Positions 1 to 10,009 of a DNA stretch of 10,009 bases are shown in pieces. Positions within the stretch are counted from its first letter, which is position 1; each line of letters starts with the position of its first letter. Location: positions 1-10,009 of the forward strand of contig LRSL01000114.1 of the NCBI GenBank assembly GCA_001563335.1. Direction: 5' to 3'. The notes under the pieces were generated by a model. The model saw only the letters and a program-made list of their open reading frames with translations. It was not told the origin of the DNA and made no database searches. The position numbers and the translations under genes are program-made. This DNA is from Candidatus Thorarchaeota archaeon SMTZ1-45. Lineage in GTDB: Archaea; Asgardarchaeota; Thorarchaeia; Thorarchaeales; Thorarchaeaceae.

Positions 1-192
1 GGCTTAGGAGACCCAAGTATGGTAAGCTGGGGCACTATGCTCTATCAAGCCTTTGGAGCTGGTGCGATGTCAAGCAATCTATGGTGGTTGGTCTTCCCAC
101 CGGGAATTGCAGTCGTAGTTCTATTGATGGGTGTTTCAATGGTTGGTTATGCTATGGATGAGATAGCTAATCCAAGACTAAGGAGGAGGTAG
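1..192 (+). CDS. oppC: Peptide/nickel ABC transporter permease (OppC/DppC family), C-terminal fragment, truncated by window edge
   Basis: Frame +1 reads GLGDPSMVSWGTMLYQAFGAGAMSSNLWWLVFPPGIAVVVLLMGVSMVGYAMDEIANPRLRRR, stop TAG 190-192. GLG..SWG.ML, WW...PPG and G..DE..NPRL are the typical DppC/OppC C-terminus. Lies directly upstream of two Opp/Dpp ATPases. Confidence 0.92.
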   Translation, partial: GLGDPSMVSWGTMLYQAFGAGAMSSNLWWLVFPPGIAVVVLLMGVSMVGYAMDEIANPRLRRR

Positions 193-199
193 ATGTAAC

Positions 200-1171
200 T
201 TGACTGAATCAGAACCTGAGATTGTCTTGGAAATACAGGATCTTGGTATCTCATACATAACAAAACAAGGGAAGGTTAAAGCAGCTGAAAATGTAAGCTT
301 CAAAATACACTGTGGCGAGTTTGTAGGATTGAGTGGTGAATCGGGATGCGGTAAGACAACGACCGCGTTGGCATTGATGCACCTGCTTCCAAAGGAAGGT
401 ATCATTGAGAGTGGAAAGATATTCTTCAAGGGGCGGAATATTCTAGAATTTACGAAAAGTGAGATACTCGAGTATCTGTGGCGAGATATTTCCATGATAT
501 TCCAAGGTGCTATGAATGCCCTGAATCCGGTGCATAAGGTAATTGACCAAATGACGACTGCGATTAGAATTCATGAAAATGTTTCTGAAGAAGAAGCAAG
601 GGAGCGATCTCTAGAACTCATTGAATCTGTTGGTATTGATATTTCTCGCGCTGATGGGTATCCGCATGAAATGAGCGGAGGTATGAAGCAACGACTAATG
701 ATTGCACTGGCATTAGTATGCCATCCATCATTGGTAATTGCTGACGAGCCAACAACAGCTTTGGATGTTATGGTGCAGGCTCAAATACTTGACCTGATGA
801 ATCACCTCAGAGATAGGACAAACCTATCTCTCCTTCTTATCACACATGACTTGTCTGTAATTGCAGAAACATGTGACTATGCCATAATCATGTACGCTGG
901 TCGTATTGCAGAGATGGGGTCGATAAAGACGATTTTCTCAAATCCCGAACATCCATACACTATGAAATTAATCTCATCCTTCCCTAGCATTTTATCTGAG
1001 AAAGGAATCGATTTTATTCCTGGCAACCCTCCTGATCTAATTAATCCACCAAGTGGATGCAGATATCATGAGCGTTGTGACTATGTCATTGACAAGTGTC
1101 GACAAGAAGTACCTCCTCTTGTTGATGAGGAAGGTCATATGGTAGCTTGCTGGAGGAGGCATGATATCTAG
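200..1171 (+). CDS. oppD: Oligopeptide/dipeptide ABC transporter ATP-binding subunit (OppD/DppD)
   Basis: Walker A GESGCGKT, Q-loop IFQ, signature YPHEMSGGMKQR, Walker B IADEPTTALD, H-loop ITHD, C-terminal HPYT and GCRYHERC..C..C domain. TTG start with AGGAGGAGGT at 181-190. Confidence 0.95.
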   Translation: MTESEPEIVLEIQDLGISYITKQGKVKAAENVSFKIHCGEFVGLSGESGCGKTTTALALMHLLPKEGIIESGKIFFKGRNILEFTKSEILEYLWRDISMIFQGAMNALNPVHKVIDQMTTAIRIHENVSEEEARERSLELIESVGIDISRADGYPHEMSGGMKQRLMIALALVCHPSLVIADEPTTALDVMVQAQILDLMNHLRDRTNLSLLLITHDLSVIAETCDYAIIMYAGRIAEMGSIKTIFSNPEHPYTMKLISSFPSILSEKGIDFIPGNPPDLINPPSGCRYHERCDYVIDKCRQEVPPLVDEEGHMVACWRRHDI

Positions 1172-2181
1172 TGTCTGATGTCATATTGGAAACTAAGAAC
1201 ATCAAGAAGTACTTCATGATAAGAAGCGGTCTCTTCTCTTCCATATTCACTAGAAGGGAGCCTACTTACATAAGAGCTGTGGATGGGATCGACTTGACAA
1301 TAGATCGTGGTGAGGTATTTGCATTGGCTGGAGAGAGTGGATGTGGAAAAACTACAACAGCCAGATTAATCGTTCAGCTTGAACAGCTTACTGACGGACA
1401 AATCTGGTTTGACGGTGTTGAGATATCCAAACTAAAGGCTTCTGAATTTAAGCCATACAGACGAAGAATTCAGATGATATTTCAAGATCCTTATGGTTCT
1501 CTAAGTAATAATATGACTGTCGCAGAAATAATCGCTGAACCTTTGAAGCTTCATAAGATTTGTAGTAGTGTGGAAGAAGAGGAAGAGTTGGTTGTCACAA
1601 CTCTCGAAGATGTTGGTTTACGTCCAGCTTCTGATTTCGTAGATAGGTTGCCTCATGAATTATCAGGTGGACAAAGACAGAGAGTTGCAGTAGCAGCTGC
1701 ACTTGTCCTTGGACCAGACCTTTTGATAGCAGATGAACCTGTTTCGATGCTTGATGTTTCAATGAGAGGTCAGATTCTTAAACTATTACTTGAATTGAGG
1801 GAGAAGAAAGGAATTACCATAGTGATTATCACACATAATCTTGCTGTGGCAAAACAAATCTCTAATCGCATCGCAGTTGCATATCTGGGCGAGATTGTAG
1901 AAACTGGTGAAACTAAACAGGTGATTGATGATCCACAACATCCCTATACAAAGGCACTCCTATCAGTAGTGCCCGTTCCTGAAATCGATGTAGACCGGAA
2001 ACGTATACTACTCACTGGTGAAACTCCGAATCCGGTAAATATACCTCCTGGGTGCAGATTTCACACACGTTGTCCATTTGCAAAAGTTAAATGTAGTATT
2101 GAAGAGCCATGTCTCACTACTCTTCCAGATGGTCGGCAAGTTCGTTGCCATGATTTAAACGGAGAGCAAGTGGCTAATTAA
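1171..2181 (+). CDS. oppF: Oligopeptide/dipeptide ABC transporter ATP-binding subunit (OppF/DppF)
   Basis: RAVDG, GESGCGKT, IFQDPYGSL, PHELSGGQRQR, ADEPVSMLDVS, HPYT, GCRFHTRCP. The GTG start overlaps the oppD stop (TAGTG). GGAGGAGG at 1152-1159. Confidence 0.95.
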   Translation: MSDVILETKNIKKYFMIRSGLFSSIFTRREPTYIRAVDGIDLTIDRGEVFALAGESGCGKTTTARLIVQLEQLTDGQIWFDGVEISKLKASEFKPYRRRIQMIFQDPYGSLSNNMTVAEIIAEPLKLHKICSSVEEEEELVVTTLEDVGLRPASDFVDRLPHELSGGQRQRVAVAAALVLGPDLLIADEPVSMLDVSMRGQILKLLLELREKKGITIVIITHNLAVAKQISNRIAVAYLGEIVETGETKQVIDDPQHPYTKALLSVVPVPEIDVDRKRILLTGETPNPVNIPPGCRFHTRCPFAKVKCSIEEPCLTTLPDGRQVRCHDLNGEQVAN

Positions 2182-2196
2182 GAGCCCAACTTTTTC

Positions 2197-2254
2197 TGTT
2201 CACAATTGAACATATATGTTGGCCACTCTTTTCTAGATGTTCACTTTTTATATG
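2197..2254 (+). promoter_or_regulatory. Putative archaeal promoter/operator region of the corrinoid-MtmB operon
   Basis: Palindrome TGTTCA-caat-TGAACA (2197-2212), overlapping perfect palindrome AACATATATGTT (2209-2220), a third TGTTCA (2238-2243), then TATA-like TTTTTATATG (2245-2254) about 30 nt before ATG 2284. The T-run at 2191-2195 may terminate the opp transcript. Confidence 0.55.
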
Positions 2255-2283: not shown

Positions 2284-2931
2284 ATGAGTAAAGAGATTGA
2301 GGTACTGAAGCAAGCTGTCATAGATGGTGATGCAGATGCAGTAATAGATTCAGCCAAGAAAGCGCTAGATGCGGGGATAAATCCTATTGAAATTTTAGAG
2401 AACGGAATTTCTCGTGGTGCCCAGGTTGTGGGTGATCAATTTGAAAAATTGGAGATATTCTTGACAGAACTCATGCTCTCAGGAGAGGCTATGATGGCTG
2501 GATTAAATGTGGTTCTTCCTCATCTCAAGACTGAGGATGTTCCCCAGAAGGGGAAGGTTGTTGTTGGTACAGTACGGGGCGACGTGCATGAGATTGGTAA
2601 GAATATTCTCAAGTCACTCCTCGTTGCAAATGGTTTCGAAGTTAGTGACTTAGGGGTTGATGTTCCCACATCGAAATTTGTTGAGGCGGCTGAAAAAATT
2701 CATGCTGATATTATTGCACTATCTGCTCTCATGACCTCCACTCTTGGTGGACAAAAGGACGTGATTGACTACCTTGAGCAAACCGGTAACCGCAATAAAT
2801 ACATCATAATGGTTGGTGGTGGTCCCACAAATCAAGGCTGGGCTGATGAGATAGGGGCTGATGGCTTCGCTGAAACTGCTCCTGAAGCTGCTAGACTAGC
2901 AATAGAACTCATTGAGAAACGGAGGAATTAA
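2284..2931 (+). CDS. mtmC: Methyltransferase cognate corrinoid (B12-binding) protein, MtmC/MtbC/MttC family
   Basis: N-terminal cap domain (VGDQFEKLEIFLTELMLSGEAM), B12-binding motif GDVHEIGKNI (DxHxxG), DLGVDVP, SALMTST, MVGGG, IGADGF. Start placed at ATG 2284 (MSKEIEV, 215 aa) rather than TTG 2206, whose extension runs through the TATA-like region. The symbol is assigned from adjacency to mtmB. Confidence 0.9.
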   Translation: MSKEIEVLKQAVIDGDADAVIDSAKKALDAGINPIEILENGISRGAQVVGDQFEKLEIFLTELMLSGEAMMAGLNVVLPHLKTEDVPQKGKVVVGTVRGDVHEIGKNILKSLLVANGFEVSDLGVDVPTSKFVEAAEKIHADIIALSALMTSTLGGQKDVIDYLEQTGNRNKYIIMVGGGPTNQGWADEIGADGFAETAPEAARLAIELIEKRRN

Positions 2932-2934
2932 AGT

Positions 2935-4314
2935 ATGATACCAATCATTGAGATTACAAATCGAGCTCTAAATGGGAAACCTATCTTAGAGAAAGACTAT
3001 GATATGCGTGTATTCTCTCCTAGAGTGCGAGAGCTAGTCAAAGAGTATGGTATACATTATGATCCAGCTGCTCTAGTTCCATCTGATGACGGATTGGCTG
3101 ATTCAATCTTTAAAGCTGCAATTGACCTTATCTGCGATGTAGGAGTCTATTGCAAAGATACTGAACGGATAATTGCGTTTGAAGAGAAAGAAGTACGTAA
3201 TGAACTCAAGACATCATTTAACCATGCTATGTTAGGAGAAGGAATGGAACAGCGAACATTGCTACCACGTAAGCCTGAGTCAAAGGAACGTCCGTGGATT
3301 TTTTCAGGTGCAGGTGGTGTAACTGTTTCTAATGAGAATATCTTCTTGCGACTGGTTGAGAGCTATGCTCGTAAAATTCCAATAGCCAATGCAATTACAA
3401 CACCCTGCTTATTGTCTGTGGATGGAATCAATATCCGTGCCAAGTCTCCTTTAGAAATTGAGGGATCTATCAGAACAGTAGTCTTGGGAAGAGAGGCATT
3501 GAGACGAGCTGGACGTCCTGGACTTCCAATCATGAATGCGATTGGAACAGCAGAGTCAGCTATCGCACTTGCCTCAGGTCTTCATCCTGATTTTGGCTTA
3601 AGAAAGACTGATGGCTACATGATTGCTGAACTTGCTGAGTTGAAGACAGATTTTGACTTGCTCAACAGAGCAGCGCTTCTTCAATCATTGAATGTACCAA
3701 TTGCTGGTATCTATGGACCAATCTATGGCGGATTTGCAGGTGGAGCCGAAGGTACAGCAATTACTAGTACTGCTTTTCATATCCAAGGAATCCTAACCTA
3801 CGGTGCTTCTTGGACACTATGTTTCCCAATTCACATTAAATATACTTCAAGTTCGTCATTAGAACTCATTTGGGTGGCAAGTGCTTATTCTCAAGCTGTA
3901 TCTAGAAATACAAACGTACCTGCTCTTTACTATAACTACACTGCGGCTGGTCCTTGCACTGAAATGGTCCTTCAAGAATTTGCAGCTGAGTTTATTGCCG
4001 CTGTATCATCAGGCGCCTCCATAGAAACTGGAGGTGTTGCGAAGGGCAAGTATTTTGATTATCTAACACCAATCGAACCAATGTTCGCATCGGAGGTCGC
4101 ATATGCATCAGCAGGACTGAAAAGAACTGATGCAAATGAAATTGTGAAGAAGATAATACCAAAGTTTGAGGATAGAATCCCTGATCCACCAAAGGGAAAA
4201 CGTTTCCAAGAGTGCTGTGACCTCAAGACTGGTGAGCCTTCGAAGGAATGTTATGATATATACAACAAGGTCAAGAAAGAGGTTATTGATTTGGGTATTG
4301 AATTTCAATATTGA
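2935..4314 (+). CDS. mtmB: Monomethylamine:corrinoid methyltransferase (MtmB) family protein, non-pyrrolysine variant
   Basis: 459 aa. Recognisable MtmB motifs: D..AD..F.A, GVYCKDTERII, AGRPG, ELK.D, PIYGGFAGG.E, AGPCTEM, A.KG, P.GK.FQEC.D..T..P, DLG. No internal TAG. Starts 3 nt after the corrinoid gene, with GGAGGA at 2921-2926. Confidence 0.9.
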   Translation: MIPIIEITNRALNGKPILEKDYDMRVFSPRVRELVKEYGIHYDPAALVPSDDGLADSIFKAAIDLICDVGVYCKDTERIIAFEEKEVRNELKTSFNHAMLGEGMEQRTLLPRKPESKERPWIFSGAGGVTVSNENIFLRLVESYARKIPIANAITTPCLLSVDGINIRAKSPLEIEGSIRTVVLGREALRRAGRPGLPIMNAIGTAESAIALASGLHPDFGLRKTDGYMIAELAELKTDFDLLNRAALLQSLNVPIAGIYGPIYGGFAGGAEGTAITSTAFHIQGILTYGASWTLCFPIHIKYTSSSSLELIWVASAYSQAVSRNTNVPALYYNYTAAGPCTEMVLQEFAAEFIAAVSSGASIETGGVAKGKYFDYLTPIEPMFASEVAYASAGLKRTDANEIVKKIIPKFEDRIPDPPKGKRFQECCDLKTGEPSKECYDIYNKVKKEVIDLGIEFQY

Positions 4315-4326
4315 TAATCAACAAAC

Positions 4327-5457
4327 TCACACCCATAACCTATGCCCAAAATGCAGAACTGCAGTGGACTCTCCATCCTCCCGAGATATCTCTTCGACGC
4401 CATCAAGTGCTACCAAGTTCAGTATAAGCTTGATTGCAAAATCTTTGAATGACGGCGTTCTAGCGCCAATTTGGACCCTAACTAAGTCGCCATCCAACTT
4501 CACATCGCATCTTTCTAATAGTCCGGTCGAGGAGATATTAAGAGCTGCTTTCTGTACATGATCAAACACTGACACTTCTTTGTCCGGTGGGGATGGAATA
4601 TACTGCGGTCCAACATTTCGAATGCTTATGAGTGTCTTTTCGCTGATTGGGTCGTTGATTGTGTGAGTTATCAACCAATCGAGAAGAGGAGCTGGAAGCG
4701 TGGCATTTCCTGCCCTACCTGATTTCATAAGAAGTTCCTCTCTCCGTTCCTTCCATGCACCAAAGATTCGTTGATTCCGATTCTCTTTCTTTATACTAAA
4801 CTCTTTGTCATCTAGCCAATGAATACTAATTTTATTTGCTGCTATTATCTCTACATCAACTGTGTATCCAGCTTCGTCCCAACTGGAAAGTAGAAAAAGA
4901 ATGATTACTTCTGGAATAGTTCGTAGCATTTTCACTGTTGCGAGAATTGTCTTTCGTTCGGGGAAAAACTCTGCAGATCTCAATATTCCCATCTTTTCGA
5001 GTAATTTGATATGTTCTGCAAACGCATGGTATGTGTTCTTCCAAGTATCATTCTCAATTACGCCAAGTCCACGTAGAAGTTTTGTTTGTTGAACTCCTAC
5101 TTTTGAAATGTTCTCAATGAACTCATTTGATGATTGGTTTGCATGTCCCAAATTCATGAAAGCCTCGAGAAACTCCGAGTTCATTAATCCCATCTCTGCA
5201 GTTGTCACAAGAGAAGAGAGCAATTTTGATGATACTGATGCTTCGCACGTTTCACAATCCGGATGATCTTTTCTCTTCGAGAAGTATCGCACTGCCTCCT
5301 CTAGAGTGTCATTTATACGACCTGATTCTCCACTAATCTCATTCAGCATTTCCCTAGTTGAAACAGAAATTGTAGTGTGTAAATGAACACGTGAATTCTT
5401 TCTCCTAATTTCTTTGAGACTATCCGCCTTTGAGCTCCAACTTCCTTTCATGAACAC
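4327..5457 (-). CDS. Hypothetical protein; probable ribbon-helix-helix transcriptional regulator with CxxC linker and duplicated V4R-like domains
   Basis: 376-aa ORF filling the gap, convergent with mtmB (12 nt apart). N-terminal RVHLHTTISVSTREMLNEISGESGRINDTLEEAVRYF has a beta-alpha-alpha RHH pattern, followed by CETC and two similar C-terminal modules. Start is GTG 5457 or ATG 5451. The domain calls are by eye. Confidence 0.7.
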   Translation of the reverse strand: MFMKGSWSSKADSLKEIRRKNSRVHLHTTISVSTREMLNEISGESGRINDTLEEAVRYFSKRKDHPDCETCEASVSSKLLSSLVTTAEMGLMNSEFLEAFMNLGHANQSSNEFIENISKVGVQQTKLLRGLGVIENDTWKNTYHAFAEHIKLLEKMGILRSAEFFPERKTILATVKMLRTIPEVIILFLLSSWDEAGYTVDVEIIAANKISIHWLDDKEFSIKKENRNQRIFGAWKERREELLMKSGRAGNATLPAPLLDWLITHTINDPISEKTLISIRNVGPQYIPSPPDKEVSVFDHVQKAALNISSTGLLERCDVKLDGDLVRVQIGARTPSFKDFAIKLILNLVALDGVEEISREDGESTAVLHFGHRLWV

Positions 5458-5507
5458 ACTTCCCTAGTTATGTTCAAGGAGTATCTACTATATTTACATT
5501 ATGAACA
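5451..5507 (-). promoter_or_regulatory. Putative promoter/operator of the RHH-like gene
   Basis: Minus-strand TAAATATA (5489-5496) is flanked by TGTTCA (5471-5476) and TGAACA (5502-5507). A third TGAACA (5451-5456) lies at the start codon. Confidence 0.45.
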
Positions 5508-5621
5508 AAGAACTTGTTGCTCGTAAATAAGGTGTACATAATTCCAAGAGAATGTATTTCATTGAATCAATCTTTTTTCTCATCTTGAGATCTGAGGTAT
5601 CATAGTATCTTCTGAATAATC

Positions 5622-5669
5622 CCTACCAATCCAATTAGGAACCTTTTTCCAATAGAACTCTATAGGAAA
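5622..5669. promoter_or_regulatory. Operator-like inverted repeat(s) upstream of the deacetylase
   Basis: TTTCCAATAGA-ac-TCTATAGGAAA (5646-5669; 11-bp arms, 1 mismatch). A degenerate upstream copy CCTA-N10-TAGGAA lies at 5622-5641. Both copies are CC-N14-GGAA. Confidence 0.45.
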
Positions 5670-5685
5670 GTAAGGTGCCAAATTA

Positions 5686-6513
5686 ATGGAATGGAAAAAT
5701 GGAGCTAAATGTGCTGTCTGTCTTACTTTTGACTTTGATGCAGACACTTCGTGGAGAAACATACTTCGTCGCTGCAATATTGAGCGGGATAACCCAGTTG
5801 TTATCTCCATCGGTGAATATGGTCCACGGGCTGCTCTACCTCGCATTTTAAGGCTTCTCAAGAGTCACGATATCAAGGCAGGATTTTTTGTTCCAGGTGA
5901 AGTAGCTGATCGTTTCGCAAATGCAGTAAAGGACATTCATAATGCTGGTCATGAGGTTGGGCACCATGGATATCATCACAAGAATCCCGCACGCCTCACA
6001 CCCTCTGAAGAGATAGAAGAACTCGAGCGAGGGTCAACCGCGTTAGAGAACATCACAGGGTACAAACCTGTTGGATATCGCGCACCTGCAGCGGATTTGA
6101 GCCCACATACTTACTCACTTTTGGCTAATCACGGACTGATTTATGATAGCACTATGATGAATGATGATATACCATACATTGTTGAAATCGAGGGCAGAAA
6201 GATTGTTGAGCTACCAATAAGATGGATGCTTGATGACTGGGTCTATTTTGGTTTCAATATGTTTCCAGCTCTTGCCTATCAAAGTGGCATAAGTAGTCAG
6301 GAAAAAGTCTTTGAGATCTGGTCAGCTGAGTTCGAGGCTATCTATGATGAGGGACTGTATTTTATGTTGACAATGCATCCGCAAATAATGGGTGTTCCAT
6401 CTCGAAGTAAGATGCTTGATAGGTTAATACATCTTATGAAGTCGAAAGGTGATGTGTGGTTTGCCACGCCTAGAGAAATTGCTGAGTTTTGGCTTGAACA
6501 TGGAGGAGATTAA
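5686..6513 (+). CDS. Polysaccharide deacetylase family (CE4), PuuE/HP0310(PgdA)-like metal-dependent amidohydrolase
   Basis: TFDFD, GEYG, FFVPG, HEVGHHGYHH metal-binding motif, GYRAP, YDST...DD.PY, ELP..W.LDDW, LTMHPQ.MG..SR, VWFAT..EIA. No signal peptide, so probably cytoplasmic. Confidence 0.9.
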   Translation: MEWKNGAKCAVCLTFDFDADTSWRNILRRCNIERDNPVVISIGEYGPRAALPRILRLLKSHDIKAGFFVPGEVADRFANAVKDIHNAGHEVGHHGYHHKNPARLTPSEEIEELERGSTALENITGYKPVGYRAPAADLSPHTYSLLANHGLIYDSTMMNDDIPYIVEIEGRKIVELPIRWMLDDWVYFGFNMFPALAYQSGISSQEKVFEIWSAEFEAIYDEGLYFMLTMHPQIMGVPSRSKMLDRLIHLMKSKGDVWFATPREIAEFWLEHGGD

Positions 6514-6515
6514 TC

Positions 6516-7274
6516 ATGAAATGACTAGAAGGTAGGGTTGCTATCATCACTGGAGTTGCATCAGGTATTGGACGCGCAACAGCCAACCTATTCGCAAAAG
6601 AAGGAGCCCGAATTGTGGGTGTTGATATTGATGAGGAAGGGGGCAAGTCCATCACAGAGAAGGTTCAAGCATTTGGAGGTAGTATGACATTTGTGAAAGC
6701 AGATGTATCAAATGAAAATGAAATTAGTACATTCTTTGATATTGCTCAAGAAATGGGCGGAGTAGACGTTTTATTCAATAATGCTGGTGTTGAGGTAGCC
6801 AAGAGTCTCTTGGATACATCAGAAGAGGACTGGAACAAGAACATAGATGTAAACTTGAAGTCTGTCTTCTTCACTTGCAAATATGCCATCCAACAGATGA
6901 AAGAAAAAGGAAAAGGTGTGATCATTAATAATTCGTCAGTTGCAGGTCTGGTCGGATCATTCTCTCCTGCCTACTCTGCAGCTAAGGGCGGAATCATTGC
7001 CTTAACAAAGGCACTGGCCACAGATTTTGGACAGTATAACATCCGTGTGAATTGTATCTGTCCAGGAGCTATTGAAACTCCTATGTTGGAACGTGTCATA
7101 AAGTTTCAAGGTGAACCATCTGAGGTCCGTGAGAGAAGATTGAAGAACTATCCACTTGCTCGTTTTGGCTATCCTGATGAAGTTGCCCAGACTGCATTAT
7201 TCCTGGCATCAGATGACTCGTCCTTTGGGAATGGAGCTACCATTCCTGTCGATGGCGGTTTCACTGCTAAATGA
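6516..7274 (+). pseudogene. Classical short-chain dehydrogenase/reductase (SDR, FabG-like) with in-frame TGA at codon 3
   Basis: ATG 6516 (GGAGGAG at 6502-6508) reads M-K-*(TGA 6522-6524)-LEGRVAIITGVASGIGRATANLFAKEGARIVGVD, in frame with the 6615-7274 ORF. That ORF has NNAG, SS, YSAAK, IRVNCICPG and VDGG. The 6615 ORF alone lacks the essential TGxxxGxG motif. The SDR identity is firm; pseudogene status versus sequencing error is unresolved. Confidence 0.75.
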
Positions 7275-7558
7275 TCCAAATTAAAAAAAACAGACTCTTA
7301 TCCAAAAATAGCAAAACACCTGCATCTTGGGCGTTAAATGGCTCACTCAATATTTAATACCATTCCTACGCAATTATTGGTTTAAGGCGAATGCAGATAT
7401 CATGACAAGACTTATGCAAAAGGTCATACGATATATCCATAGAGTTCGATTCTGGAAGATAGGATACTCGCCCACATCTAGTTGTTTTCTGTATCAAATT
7501 TTATTGAGTGATCCCAGTAATTTTGTATTCGGTTCACAGTTACAAGGGAGGTGAGATT

Positions 7559-7669
7559 GTGGGCAGACATAACAACTCCAGAGGACCTCGAAATAGGAAT
7601 CGGAACTCTCACCGAAGACACATTCCTGTGATAGAAGATAAATTGGATATAGGCTGGTCAGGCGCTTAG
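7559..7669 (+). CDS. Candidate 36-aa Arg/Asn/His-rich small protein
   Basis: GGGAGGTGA (7546-7554) lies 4 nt before GTG 7559. Reads MGRHNNSRGPRNRNRNSHRRHIPVIEDKLDIGWSGA*. No family recognised. Confidence 0.3.
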   Translation: MGRHNNSRGPRNRNRNSHRRHIPVIEDKLDIGWSGA

Positions 7670-8003
7670 ATCCAAACCCTATTCCGAATCCTAGTGTTTC
7701 TCCATTTCATAAGAATGAGGACGCACTAGTAAGAAGACACAACGGTATAGACTAGTACGGTAGTGATTTCCAGAAATCGTCAAATCTCTGCGCGGTGCCA
7801 AGAATCCCTGAGCTATAGCTAGGCTGACGAACGCCAAACACGCAACAACTATGCTTGCTAATTTATAACTACCTGAAGAGCTTCGTATCAGCTACTCTTG
7901 TTATTTAGTGAATTCTAGAACATCGAAGGACTTATTAGGAACTAGTTAAAGAGTTTAGGTTAATTATGTTAAGGTATTCGCGTTAACTCAGAAGGCTGGA
8001 GAA

Positions 8004-8474
8004 ATGTTTAGCTACCTTCGATATCCTACCAGGCAACAGGGGCTTATCTGGCTCAGGCGTCGCCAGAAGGAGAGACCTTCAGAGATTGCCAAGGATCTGA
8101 GGGTATCACGACCATTTGTCACCATGGCCCAAAAGACAGCAGAGGAGCGAATCCTCAAACTCCTTCAACATACAGCATCAGTCAATCGAGTGAAGATTGA
8201 GCGACTAAGCACACGATACGGCATTGCCAAAGGGTATTGCCATGCTTACGATACAGACACATACATCTTCTATTCTCCAAAGATTGGTCTTCAAATCTGG
8301 TATGAGCACAAGCGCGATTGTGGCACATGCGAGATGCAGGACCAATGTCTAAAGACTCTTCGAACACTGGCAGAGGAGTGGGAGATCCCTCTTCCAGATG
8401 ACAGGCCTCCAACAGAACTCGGCGGTTACCTAGTTGATATAATTAGGAGGCGATTGAAGTGGAATCAACAATAA
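8004..8474 (+). CDS. Hypothetical archaeal HTH DNA-binding protein with C-terminal His/Cys metal-binding motif
   Basis: PTRQQGLIW...RPSEIAKDLRVSRPFVT...AEERI resembles a sigma70-region-4/LuxR-like HTH. H-x3-C-x2-C-x5-C motif (HKRDCGTCEMQDQC). GGAG precedes the ATG. Overlaps the next gene by 16 nt. Confidence 0.75.
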   Translation: MFSYLRYPTRQQGLIWLRRRQKERPSEIAKDLRVSRPFVTMAQKTAEERILKLLQHTASVNRVKIERLSTRYGIAKGYCHAYDTDTYIFYSPKIGLQIWYEHKRDCGTCEMQDQCLKTLRTLAEEWEIPLPDDRPPTELGGYLVDIIRRRLKWNQQ

Positions 8475-9580
8475 AAAACAGTCAGAGAATATGTCCTGTT
8501 CCTCCAGGTTCCAAGATGGGACTGAACTGGCGATTGAGACCTAGAACTATCATGGCTGTGGGTCTTACGTTCATGTTGACAACAACCGGTCTGGCGTTTT
8601 ACTTGATCCAACCAACTCCCATTGGGGGAATAATAACAGACCCAGTGCTTAAAGTATACAACCCACAAGCTGCCATAGTGATCGATGGGGATGCCAACTT
8701 CTCTGACATAGCTCTGCTAGAGGGATGGCCTGGTGATGGTTCTCCTGAGAACCCGTTCATTATTGACGGGTTGAACACTGCCCCAGGCGGTGGATGGATT
8801 GAAAGTATATACATCAGAAACACTCGAGTAAACTTCATCATATGCAACTGCAATTACATTGGAGCTCCTGAGGATACGTTCGGGTTCTCATGGGAACCTG
8901 GAATCTACCTAAATAATGTCACCAACGGTGAGCTAGTCAACAACACCTGCAAAAAGAACCCCATCGGCATCCTCCTCGACTCCTCGAATTCCAACACCGT
9001 GGTGAACAACACGTGCATCGACAACTTCCATGGCATCTACCTCAATGAATCAGTTTCCAACACCGTGGTCAACAACACGTGCACTGACAATTCCGAATGG
9101 GGAATGAGCGTCGCTGGGTTTGGCATCTGCCTAGAATACTCAGACTCCAACACCGTGGCGAACAACATCTGCAACAACAACAATGCAATTGGCATCTGCC
9201 TTGATGGATCGAGTTACAACACCGTGGAGAACAACACCTGCAACAGCAACGACATTGGCATCTCCCTCAATAGAAAACTGCTAGTTATTCCAAGCAATAA
9301 ATTCGAGTATTGGACCTATTCACTTTCCAACACTGTTGTGAACAACACCTGCAACAACAACAGGGTTGGCATCTACCTCCTAGATCCACATTCGAACACC
9401 GTTGTCAACAACATCTTCTTGGGCAACACTGAACATGATTTACTCGAGGATTTCACACCCAGGAAGTTTGATACTAAAGTTCTCCAGTCTATTGGGTTCT
9501 TCGGCTTAATGGGGTTCGCAGGAATCATAATGCTGGGTGCAGCATGGAGAATGTTGTCAGGAATAAGAAAATACGACTAA
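8459..9580 (+). CDS. Membrane-anchored right-handed parallel beta-helix (NosD/CASH-like) surface protein
   Basis: GTG start with AGGAGG at 8445-8450. N-terminal hydrophobic segment, cap motif IDGDANF...GWPGDGSPENPFIIDGL, repeated GI-x-L-xx-S-xx-NTVVNNTC-xx-N coils, and a C-terminal TM helix with basic tail. Confidence 0.85.
   Translation: MESTIKNSQRICPVPPGSKMGLNWRLRPRTIMAVGLTFMLTTTGLAFYLIQPTPIGGIITDPVLKVYNPQAAIVIDGDANFSDIALLEGWPGDGSPENPFIIDGLNTAPGGGWIESIYIRNTRVNFIICNCNYIGAPEDTFGFSWEPGIYLNNVTNGELVNNTCKKNPIGILLDSSNSNTVVNNTCIDNFHGIYLNESVSNTVVNNTCTDNSEWGMSVAGFGICLEYSDSNTVANNICNNNNAIGICLDGSSYNTVENNTCNSNDIGISLNRKLLVIPSNKFEYWTYSLSNTVVNNTCNNNRVGIYLLDPHSNTVVNNIFLGNTEHDLLEDFTPRKFDTKVLQSIGFFGLMGFAGIIMLGAAWRMLSGIRKYD
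8936..9430 (+). repeat. Intragenic ~66-nt tandem repeats encoding beta-helix coils
   Basis: Core TCCAACACCGTGGTGAACAACACxTGC and variants start at 8990, 9056, 9146, 9215, 9326 and 9392 (spacings 66, 90, 69, 111, 66), each preceded by a GGCATC(T/C)xCCT element. Confidence 0.85.
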
Positions 9581-9596
9581 AAAGGGAATGGTTGAA

Positions 9597-10009
9597 GTGG
9601 AATCAGAAGTAGAAAGCAAGTCAAGAATATGCCCTGTTCCTCCAGGCTCCAAGATGGGTCTGAACTGGCGATTGAGACCTAGAACTATCATGGTTGTGAG
9701 TCTGACATTCATGTTGACAACTGGTCTAGTGTATGTTTGGTTACCAAGACCACAGCCGATTATAATAATTGACCTACCAGAGGATGATCCAATCATCGAA
9801 TATGGCTTCATAACTATTGATGGGGATACCAACTTCTCGGATACAGCTCTGGTAGAGGGCTGGGAAGGTGATGGTTCTCCTGGAAATCCGTTCATAATTG
9901 ACGGGTTGCACATTGACCTTGGCGTTGAATTTGGTCACTGCATAATGATTAGCAATACACGAGTCAGCTTCACCATCAGCAACTGCAATCTCACAGGGGC
10001 TAATGTGAC
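9597..10009 (+). CDS. Second NosD-like beta-helix surface protein paralog, N-terminal part, truncated by window edge
   Basis: Absent from the ORF track because it has no stop in the window. Reads (M)ESEVESKSRICPVPPGSKMGLNWRLRPRTIMVVSLTFMLTTGLVYVWLPRPQP...IDGDTNFSDTALVEGWEGDGSPGNPFIIDGL...ISNTRVSFTISNCNLTG. GTG 9597 is chosen by homology with copy 1; in-frame ATG 9588 is an alternative. Confidence 0.88.
   Translation, partial: MESEVESKSRICPVPPGSKMGLNWRLRPRTIMVVSLTFMLTTGLVYVWLPRPQPIIIIDLPEDDPIIEYGFITIDGDTNFSDTALVEGWEGDGSPGNPFIIDGLHIDLGVEFGHCIMISNTRVSFTISNCNLTGANV

Follow-up and report, generated by a model that had tools for sequence, protein, structure and literature searches.

A pyrrolysine-free MtmB homolog encoded with a corrinoid protein, an Opp-type importer and a conserved partner gene in a Thorarchaeota archaeon

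Here we describe a pyrrolysine-free member of the MtmB family encoded in a 10,009-nucleotide (nt) stretch of DNA, referred to throughout as the window, that comprises positions 1 to 10,009 of contig LRSL01000114.1 of Candidatus Thorarchaeota archaeon SMTZ1-45 (GenBank assembly GCA_001563335.1). The protein belongs to the MtmB family by sequence and by fold, and it is without the pyrrolysine (Pyl) feature that defines MtmB proper. With UAG absent and Met invariant at the Pyl column, its sequence indicates that it is unable to use pyrrolysine chemistry, in agreement with an initial annotation that had argued against Pyl imine chemistry from the letters of the window alone. The protein is a member of a large clade spanning Asgard archaea, Bathyarchaeia and Thermoplasmata, and we put at about an even chance the proposal that it is a Pyl-independent methyltransferase that passes methyl groups from an imported methylated compound to tetrahydromethanopterin (H4MPT).

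The protein has the fold of MtmB and a Met in place of pyrrolysine

The gene and the codons that carry this finding are the following.
2935..4314, plus strand: MtmB-family substrate:corrinoid methyltransferase (MT1), Pyl-free, 459 amino acids (aa); assigned by Pfam, phmmer, AlphaFold and Foldseek
3532..3537, plus strand: codons of Met200 and Asn201, in the columns of Pyl202 and Gly203 of Methanosarcina barkeri MtmB; assigned by phmmer

The open reading frame (ORF) starts with ATG, ends with TGA and has no internal stops. Its product matches Pfam family PF05369 (MtmB) with 334 bits (cut-off 25; E 1.8e-99) over residues 4-455, corresponding to profile positions 3-450 of 450, so that the full-length 459-aa ORF lacking an in-frame TAG stands as first annotated. 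No NCBIfam equivalog matched the protein. When all PDB chains were searched with phmmer, the sole matches were to M. barkeri MtmB1 (1l2q/1nth, 1tv2-4; E 7e-67), with residues 8-457 of the window protein aligned to residues 13-458 of 1l2q. An AlphaFold2 model built on 67 homologs reached a mean predicted local distance difference test score (pLDDT) of 94.9 and a predicted template-modelling score (pTM) of 0.93. In Foldseek the TIM barrel of this model superposed on the solved MtmB structures (1tv2/1l2q/1nth; template-modelling score (TM) 0.95-0.96, root-mean-square deviation 1.4 Å, identity 31%), a structural comparison that the initial annotation had proposed; the next-best matches, structures of MttB and MtgB, had a TM of only ~0.5.

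In the phmmer alignment to 1l2q, the Pyl residue (X202) pairs with Met200 as originally proposed, Gly203 with Asn201, Glu229 with Met229 and Glu259 with Ile259. Codon 200 reads ATG (3532-3534), where a TAG would have told against the first reading, and Met is found at this position in 67 of 67 aligned homologs and in all 78 genomic loci described below; it is therefore no sequencing slip. Absent, then, are both the in-frame UAG at the Pyl column, which is the defining trait of MtmB proper, and the equivalents of Glu229 and Glu259, which are traits of Pyl-dependent MtmB proper (M229 and I259 in the phmmer alignment). We take Glu229 and Glu259 of M. barkeri MtmB to be catalytic. A tRNA scan and an Rfam scan of the 10-kb window gave no matches, and TAG is the stop codon of two of the ten window genes inspected.

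The third Glu of interest, Glu205 of 1l2q, is placed differently by different alignments: it pairs with E207 in phmmer, across a 4-residue insertion in an indel-bearing loop, and with Thr205 in a transitive alignment via the family representative P0174. The model has its lowest confidence in this loop (pLDDT 77-83). Of the three Glu replacements first claimed, those of Glu229 by Met and Glu259 by Ile hold, and the assignment of Glu205 to I203/G204 is tentative, the alignments giving E207 or T205.

A very large family of uninterrupted homologs

A word-indexed search with the window protein returned 658 homologs, the best named of which belong to metagenome-assembled genomes (MAGs) of Thorarchaeota, Sifarchaeia, Hermodarchaeota and Promethearchaeota (86-89% identity), with Bathyarchaeia next (52-64%). 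When representatives at 50% identity were searched exhaustively, E <= 1e-3 was reached by 1057 clusters and E <= 1e-30 by 235. Among the best 150 representatives, 132 are at least 430 aa long; their ORFs are therefore not split at UAG, and Pyl-free MtmB homologs therefore constitute a very large and deep family. A FastTree phylogeny of 149 rows placed the window protein among 17 rows that form a clade with support 99; this clade lies within a larger one of 38 rows (support 100) whose members have a common 'xxN' pattern after RPGxx. The loop that follows the conserved AGRPG is hypervariable from clade to clade, and the sequences thereby support its reading as a specificity determinant, of which such divergence is expected.

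No non-Pyl clade stands out as nearest to Pyl-MtmB among the eight sequences, the window protein and seven representatives of different clades, that were scored with phmmer against 1L2Q (195-263 bits): the window protein scored 229 bits, P0174 211, P0170 235, P0193 230, P0231 263, P0156 206, P0172 236 and P0210 195. P0174 is a full-length family member with Lys at the Pyl column (AGRPGTPIKG), which could be a true Lys or a Pyl entered as K by the source. Another representative, P0122, is a 260-aa fragment, 68% identical to the window protein, that begins at the Met200-equivalent residue and is probably a partial gene call.

A scan of species-representative genomes identified 338 relatives, of which the best 80 (all at least 44% identical) were retained as 78 loci, 15 of them Thorarchaeota-type and 63 other. 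We refer below to the window together with the 15 Thorarchaeota-type loci as the 16 sequences. No Methanosarcinales genomes are present among the best 80 of the 338 relatives. In a quick IQ-TREE phylogeny (LG+G4, 85 rows, the truncated locus L028 left out), the window protein falls in a 17-row Asgard clade (SH-aLRT 100) that has a stem of 0.52 and is nested among Bathyarchaeia (23 rows, support 97), and a separate 43-row clade, support 100, is mostly Thermoplasmata-type. The long stem (0.52 changes per site) within Bathyarchaeia suggests transfer and/or rapid change upon recruitment of the importer and of the 376-aa gene described below.

An uninterrupted mtmB ORF of at least 440 aa is present in 77 of the 78 loci, the exception being L028, which is cut by the contig end. 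This bears on the possibility that mtmB is what is left of a former Pyl enzyme, in decay or without catalytic activity. Some local decay is indeed seen, in that a neighbouring short-chain dehydrogenase/reductase (SDR) gene has an early in-frame TGA; against decay of mtmB itself stand the intact ORFs, 45 invariant columns across 67 homologs down to 46% identity (barrel-end residues included), the high-confidence model, and the conservation of the operon partner and the upstream motif, and we consider such a remnant extremely improbable.

Residues M200, D226, F297, H300, W313, Y335 and E364 are invariant in the 78 loci, N201 is found in 77 and E207 in 67. Position 229 is Met in 66 loci and Leu or Phe in the remainder, and position 259 is Ile in all 15 Thorarchaeota-type loci and Cys, Asp or Glu in other subclades. 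The Thorarchaeota-type subclade is further marked by E232 (13/15), A257-G258-I259-Y260, Y264, Y333 and G366. The remodelled, non-acidic active site of the initial annotation is thus right as to two of the three Glu and overstated as a whole, with D226 and E364 invariant and E207 frequent. Its suggestion of a substrate other than that of MtmB, bulkier or already activated, is plausible and agrees with the gene context.

A corrinoid protein gene and an Opp-type importer precede mtmB

Upstream of mtmB, the window contains the following genes.
2284..2931, plus strand: cognate corrinoid (B12-binding) protein, 215 aa long when begun at ATG 2284, its DxHxxG motif reading GDVHEIG; Pfam B12-binding and B12-binding_2
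1..192, plus strand: 3'-terminal part of an ABC permease gene, corresponding to the OppC-like end of a fused OppB-OppC; blastp
200..1171, plus strand: OppD-like ABC ATPase, stop codon TAG; Pfam ABC_tran and oligo_HPY, NCBIfam OppD 323 bits (cut-off 575)
1171..2181, plus strand: OppF/DppF-like ABC ATPase; Pfam ABC_tran and oligo_HPY, NCBIfam dipeptide ATPase 334.7 bits (cut-off 408)

An MT1 with its corrinoid protein is a textbook pair. The 3-nt gap between the corrinoid stop codon and the mtmB start makes it very likely that mtmB is co-transcribed with this gene for a His-on type corrinoid protein, and a corrinoid gene lies directly upstream of mtmB on the same strand in 56 of the 78 loci. The corrinoid protein scored 221.6 bits with the NCBIfam model for MtgC (cut-off 310), 213.6 bits with pyl_corrinoid (cut-off 215.3) and 193.8 bits with MtbC (NF041607; cut-off 350).

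A 102-nt gap separates the end of oppF from the corrinoid gene. Using blastp with the permease fragment 1..192, we found long permease ORFs in 13 loci, the fused OppB-OppC being ~906-910 aa; one of them (L011:4543-7269) consists of two BPD_transp_1 stretches and OppC_N and stays below the cut-offs of the NCBIfam Opp/Nik/Dpp permease models. Neighbours were counted within 7 kb of mtmB in the 78 loci. OppD/F-like ATPase genes are present in 14 of the 15 Thorarchaeota-type loci and in 6 of the 63 others (L013, L020, L044, L051, L052 and L075), none of which has a substrate-binding protein of the SBP5 family or OppBC within that distance; the ATPase matches in L013 and L020 are only 24-32% identical to the window OppD/F. 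SBP5 or fused OppBC genes are found in 10 of the 15 Thorarchaeota-type loci, with the contigs of three of the remaining five ending too early, and SBP5 or OppBC genes occur in 6 of the 63 other loci, all Thermoplasmata-type and in several arrangements.

A conserved 376-aa partner and a palindromic motif

Two further elements accompany the gene pair.
4327..5457, minus strand: conserved partner protein of 376 aa, convergent with mtmB, putative ligand-sensing regulator; adjacency and ESM Atlas leads
2197..2212, no strand: TGTTCACAATTGAACA, a perfect palindrome (TGTTCA-N4-TGAACA) and candidate operator, 72-87 nt before the corrinoid ATG

A homolog of the 376-aa gene is adjacent to mtmB in all 15 Thorarchaeota-type loci and in none of the 63 others. 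Neither Pfam nor NCBIfam gave a match to the protein, even with the threshold relaxed to E <= 1, and at that threshold no Pfam match was obtained for 14 of its 15 homologs, the last giving one chance-level match to AllH (E 0.48). The homologs share an invariant N-terminal block, RVHLHTT.S...R.N...E.A, which in our own reading is ribbon-helix-helix (RHH)-like. The AlphaFold model is of moderate quality (pLDDT 70.7, pTM 0.46) and contains a helix-strand-strand-helix-strand-strand module in two copies, for which a Foldseek search of the PDB returned only de novo designs and weak matches to H-NOX and TRAPPC3/Bet3. As leads only, the ESM Atlas gave clusters of the archaeal 'AF_0136 C-terminal domain' (score 0.94; 207 features in common) and, with less weight, a CopG/RHH cluster (0.85). 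A link between the 376-aa protein and the Msr regulators of Methanosarcina would be speculative; the accessible text of PMC3419521 gives no domain data for such a comparison. We rejected an AmzR-type identity, as AmzR, the methylamine sensor of Methanosarcina, has PAS and GAF domains (bioRxiv 10.1101/2025.05.05.652248).

The exact palindrome has one match in the window, and at least one match was found in 15 of 200 shuffles. A third half-site (2238-2243) stands beside an A/T-rich stretch (2245-2253) that may be TATA-like, as we read it. Across all loci the exact palindrome has only three matches, and the conserved element emerged with a degenerate motif, TGT[AT]CA-N4-TG[AT]ACA with at most one mismatch, which matched 33 times in 240 kb (window and 15 loci) as against 2.1 +/- 1.4 times, and at most 5, in 50 shuffles. 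All 16 sequences carry this motif a short way upstream of the corrinoid gene, at 660-775 nt ahead of the mtmB start, with the half-sites kept and the spacers differing. Further copies lie close to the 5' end of the 376-aa gene (6 loci) and ahead of BPL_N-like or SBP genes (L001, L004, L010, L011 and L017). The 63 other loci yielded 2 matches in 904 kb, and none of the 58 with enough upstream DNA has the motif before the corrinoid gene; among them is L020, a paralog (68% identical) that shares its MAG with L003. The motif thus accompanies the 376-aa gene, which points to the importer, the corrinoid-mtmB pair and the 376-aa gene as one probable regulon, a reading that is suggestive and short of proof because the 16 sequences are related. 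In the gap upstream of the 376-aa gene of the window (5458-5685), half-sites are found at 5471, 5502 and 5533, with 31-nt spacing and the full palindrome absent.

MtrH, RACo and the wider gene context

Two Thorarchaeota-type loci, L011 and L017, exemplify the extended gene order: a divergent M28 peptidase gene, a BPL_N/GATase1-like gene, SBP_bac_5, fused OppBC, OppD, OppF, the corrinoid gene, the MtmB homolog, the convergent 376-aa gene and an M20 deacylase gene. In L012, which carries an 80%-identical ortholog, the order is aldehyde:ferredoxin oxidoreductase, corrinoid protein, MtmB homolog, MtrH, RACo and, on the same strand, the 376-aa homolog, beyond which OppF, OppD, OppBC and SBP5 lie on the opposite strand; the importer is thus inverted and relocated downstream, yet still in the cluster. 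MtrH and RACo of L012 match their Pfam families at E 2.3e-69 and E 1.2e-78, respectively, and this MtrH reached 277.5 bits with the model of the MtrH family, whose cut-off is 287, and 193 bits with MtgA (cut-off 550). The MtrH-RACo pair, which comes straight after the corrinoid-mtmB genes, lies within 7 kb of mtmB in 1 of the 15 Thorarchaeota-type loci (L012) and 3 of the 63 others (Bathyarchaeia L016, L018 and L019), so that the four-gene module of MT1, corrinoid protein, second methyltransferase (MT2) and activator is complete in these four loci.

Genes for M20 ArgE/DapE-type deacylases are found in 7 of the 15 Thorarchaeota-type and 4 of the 63 other loci, and M28 peptidases and the BPL_N/GATase1-like gene are likewise recurrent neighbours. 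An uninterrupted (non-Pyl) MttB-family gene occurs in none of the 15 and in 18 of the 63 (e.g. L074:6186-7640 and L018), the MttB homolog of L074 scoring 369.6 bits on TIGR02369 (cut-off 525). Where MttB and MtmB homologs occur together, two enzyme families may carry out stepwise demethylation of one compound. In L013, L014 and L021, all from Bathyarchaeia, two MtmB paralogs that are 56-63% identical to the window protein surround one corrinoid gene.

This context also bears on the proposal that the barrel was re-tooled for another leaving group and that the methyl donor carries its methyl group on oxygen or sulfur, as do methoxylated aromatics, methanethiol and compounds of the dimethylsulfoniopropionate type. 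The clade is widespread in Bathyarchaeia and Thermoplasmata, aldehyde:ferredoxin oxidoreductase genes lie near mtmB in 5 loci, and the pocket has lost two Glu and gained hydrophobic, sulfur-containing and aromatic side chains. The invariant D226 and E364 and the frequent E207 are nonetheless better suited to a cationic substrate, and the recurrent neighbours are tied to amino-compound metabolism: among the 63 other loci we counted Lrp/AsnC regulators in 8, class-III aminotransferases in 5 and saccharopine-dehydrogenase-like genes in 11, besides the non-Pyl MttB genes. Both known activities of the family, those of MtmB and MtqB, are on amines (PMC13044021), and we regard an O- or S-methyl donor as quite unlikely.

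Beyond the 376-aa gene, the window contains the following pair.
5686..7274, plus strand: polysaccharide-deacetylase/PuuE-like hydrolase (5686-6513) and SDR oxidoreductase (from 6516); Pfam and NCBIfam

Loosely associated with the cluster, this accessory hydrolase-SDR pair accompanies it in three Thorarchaeota-type loci out of 15 (L001, L010 and L015). The SDR gene of the window (6516-7274, ATG AAA TGA CTA GAA...) has an in-frame TGA at codon 3 (6522-6524), where L010 has CGA, and its Rossmann motif is encoded upstream of GTG 6615, the next start that could be used; the TGA may have arisen by nonsense mutation, be an error of sequencing or be a stop that is recoded. No long ORF is present in 7275-8003. 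It is followed by a 156-aa ORF without a family match (8004-8474), which overlaps by 16 nt the start of the first of two tandem NosD/beta-helix repeat genes (8459-9580 and 9588-10007); the N-terminal stretches of these two genes (ICPVPPGSKMGLNWRLRPRTIM...) are nearly identical, and the second runs off the window.

MtqB and the identity of the substrate

The initial annotation had stated that no substrate was characterised for any non-Pyl MtmB protein, and this is now out of date. MtqB (ACT9XH_RS04775) of Methanococcoides methylutens Q3c, described in 2026, belongs to the MtmB homologs without Pyl, and the partially purified enzyme methylates cob(I)alamin at 37 nmol/min/mg with tetramethylammonium, 42 with choline and, weakly, 11 with monomethylamine (PMC13044021). 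The authors' tree of 1,061 sequences places MtqB in a clade of Methanococcoides, Methanosarcina and bacteria, and in the accessible text of that paper the remaining non-Pyl MtmBs are assigned no function; its Discussion notes their occurrence in Asgard archaea, and the MtqB pocket is described as rich in sulfur-containing and aromatic residues (PMC13044021).

The window protein might accordingly be an ortholog or functional equivalent of MtqB that demethylates tetramethylammonium and/or choline. Both belong to the same family and are likewise without Pyl, non-Pyl MtmBs are reported from Asgard archaea (PMC13044021), and the barrel end of the window protein presents M200, M229, Y228, Y260, Y264, F297, Y333 and Y335, residues whose membership of the pocket is inferred from the strand ends of the model. 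Nevertheless, the best 80 of the 338 relatives, all at least 44% identical, include no Methanosarcinales, and MtqB itself is probably less than ~45% identical to the window protein, although it may have escaped the patterns used in the scan. After AGRPG, the specificity loop varies greatly from clade to clade, and the MT2 of the window's relatives is MtrH-type, not a coenzyme M (CoM) methyltransferase. To our knowledge, an SBP5/Opp importer is not the usual carrier of choline or tetramethylammonium. MtqC is moreover MtbC-type (PMC13044021), whereas the window corrinoid protein reaches 193.8 bits against the MtbC cut-off of 350. Taken together, these points make an MtqB equivalent unlikely. Attempts to find MtqB among our sequences led elsewhere: P0165, a representative guessed from a 'GMC' motif in the loop, proved to belong to a Chloroflexi/marine clade, a profile built from the clade scoring best against Pyl-MtmB gave only Chloroflexi/Anaerolineae names, the ESM Atlas returned only generic MtmB clusters, and tblastn against plasmids gave no match.

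Alternatively, the protein could be a true monomethylamine:corrinoid methyltransferase that manages without pyrrolysine, and it has a fold nearly identical to that of MtmB and homologs named 'monomethylamine:corrinoid methyltransferase' at source. These names stem from family-level annotation, however, and no NCBIfam equivalog matches. Furthermore, Pyl, E229 and E259, whose role we presume, are all replaced, and monomethylamine needs neither an SBP5/Opp-type importer nor peptidase or deacylase neighbours. Even with the low monomethylamine activity of MtqB (11 nmol/min/mg; PMC13044021) in its favour, we judge this reading very unlikely.

A proposed route to tetrahydromethanopterin

The Pyl-independent, H4MPT-directed methyltransferase to which we give an even chance would operate as follows. 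The importer would take up a methylated compound, or else a precursor that is peptide-like or acylated; the substrate would most likely be cationic and N-methylated, and probably not monomethylamine. A cationic substrate would fit the protein because D226 and E364 are present in 78/78 loci and E207 in 67/78. The MtmB homolog would orient the methyl group so that the Co(I) corrinoid protein can attack it, and MtrH would then hand the methyl to tetrahydromethanopterin and the Wood-Ljungdahl pathway, not to CoM. RACo would re-reduce oxidised cofactor, and the 376-aa protein would sense the substrate and control the regulon through the palindrome.

More tentatively, it is possible that the cluster represents a hitherto undescribed Asgard methylotrophic route that combines SBP5/Opp uptake of a methylated amino-acid- or peptide-like compound, Pyl-free demethylation, transfer through MtrH to H4MPT and a 376-aa regulator family. 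Its substrate might be, for example, trimethyllysine or another amino-acid betaine, or else an N-methylated peptide set free by the neighbouring M20/M28-type hydrolases. The Met-Asn pocket might, for example, stand in for pyrrolysine, and AF_0136-like one-component regulators might act via TGTTCA-N4-TGAACA.

Several observations weigh against the proposed methyltransferase. The window itself has the MT1 and the corrinoid protein and neither MT2 nor activator, and these lie beside mtmB in only 1 of the 15 Thorarchaeota-type and 3 of the 63 other loci. Two of the 15 Thorarchaeota-type loci are without a working importer nearby: in L005, a complete Thorarchaeota chromosome, 7051-9245 has only a 233-aa C-terminal OppF remnant before the corrinoid-mtmB pair, with a GltD-like oxidoreductase gene replacing the rest of the importer, and in L015 the ATPase gene is absent. 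SBP5/Opp-family transporters carry peptides, nickel, opines and, in archaea, sugars, and the best NCBIfam matches of the binding protein are far below the cut-offs (NikA 125 against 393 bits); the transporter family is therefore a poor guide to the ligand. Because the 15 loci are closely related (74-90% identity), their common gene order and motif are in part a matter of descent. In the wider clade, positions 229 and 259 vary, with D/E at 259 in several subclades, so the Thorarchaeota-type pocket need not represent the whole clade. DNA binding by the 376-aa protein is suggested only by our reading of its N-terminus and by the Atlas lead at 0.85. Finally, MtqB, though non-Pyl, turns over some monomethylamine (PMC13044021).

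Genome papers usually count these genes as monomethylamine methyltransferase when they infer the use of methylamines in Asgard archaea, Bathyarchaeia and Thermoplasmata, and MtmB is listed as a methylamine enzyme in Sifarchaeia (PMC9723677); for this clade the monomethylamine label is probably wrong. The phylogeny of MtmB in general has been treated (PMC9635834), and full-text literature searches returned no study of this clade's substrate, importer link or regulator, although subscription journals and supplements may hold more. Judging from the accessible text of PMC13044021, MtqB is the only member with an assigned activity among the very large non-Pyl MtmB family. The binding protein, the sensor protein and the enzyme offer concrete handles on the real substrate, the identity of which would reveal the methylated compounds that supply acetogenic or methyl-oxidising metabolism in sediment archaea with kinship to the ancestors of eukaryotes.

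Comparison with known systems

The window protein resembles M. barkeri MtmB1 in its Pfam family, its TIM barrel, its length (459 against 458 aa), the corrinoid gene directly upstream, and the conserved AGRPG, GGxxGG and AGPCTEM stretches. It differs in having Met200-Asn201 for Pyl202-Gly203, Met for E229 and Ile for E259, and in the indels of the loop after residue 201. The MT2 of its relatives is MtrH-type, whereas MtmB pairs with the CoM-specific MtbA (PMC13044021).

MtqB and MtqC, compared here by description only, likewise combine a Pyl-free MtmB-family enzyme with a corrinoid protein encoded next to it, and MtqB establishes that the family can act on quaternary amines without Pyl (PMC13044021). 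MtqC is annotated as MtbC-type, whereas the window corrinoid protein fails the MtbC model and is best matched by MtgC; and MtqB operates in a methanogen, its methyl groups passing to CoM via MtbA (PMC13044021), whereas the window clade is found in non-Methanosarcinales archaea and has MtrH, RACo, an SBP5/Opp importer and a dedicated partner.

In its logic the system resembles the glycine betaine systems of the MtgB/MtgC/MtgA type and those of other non-Pyl MttB homologs, in which a Pyl-free MT1, a corrinoid protein and an MtrH/MtgA-type MT2 lead to a one-carbon carrier. MtgC is the best model for the window corrinoid protein, at 221.6 bits and below its cut-off of 310, and the MtrH of L012 matches the MtgA model at 193 bits, below its cut-off of 550. 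Unlike MtgB and MttB, from whose structures it is separated by a Foldseek TM of ~0.5, the MT1 of the window comes from the MtmB family.

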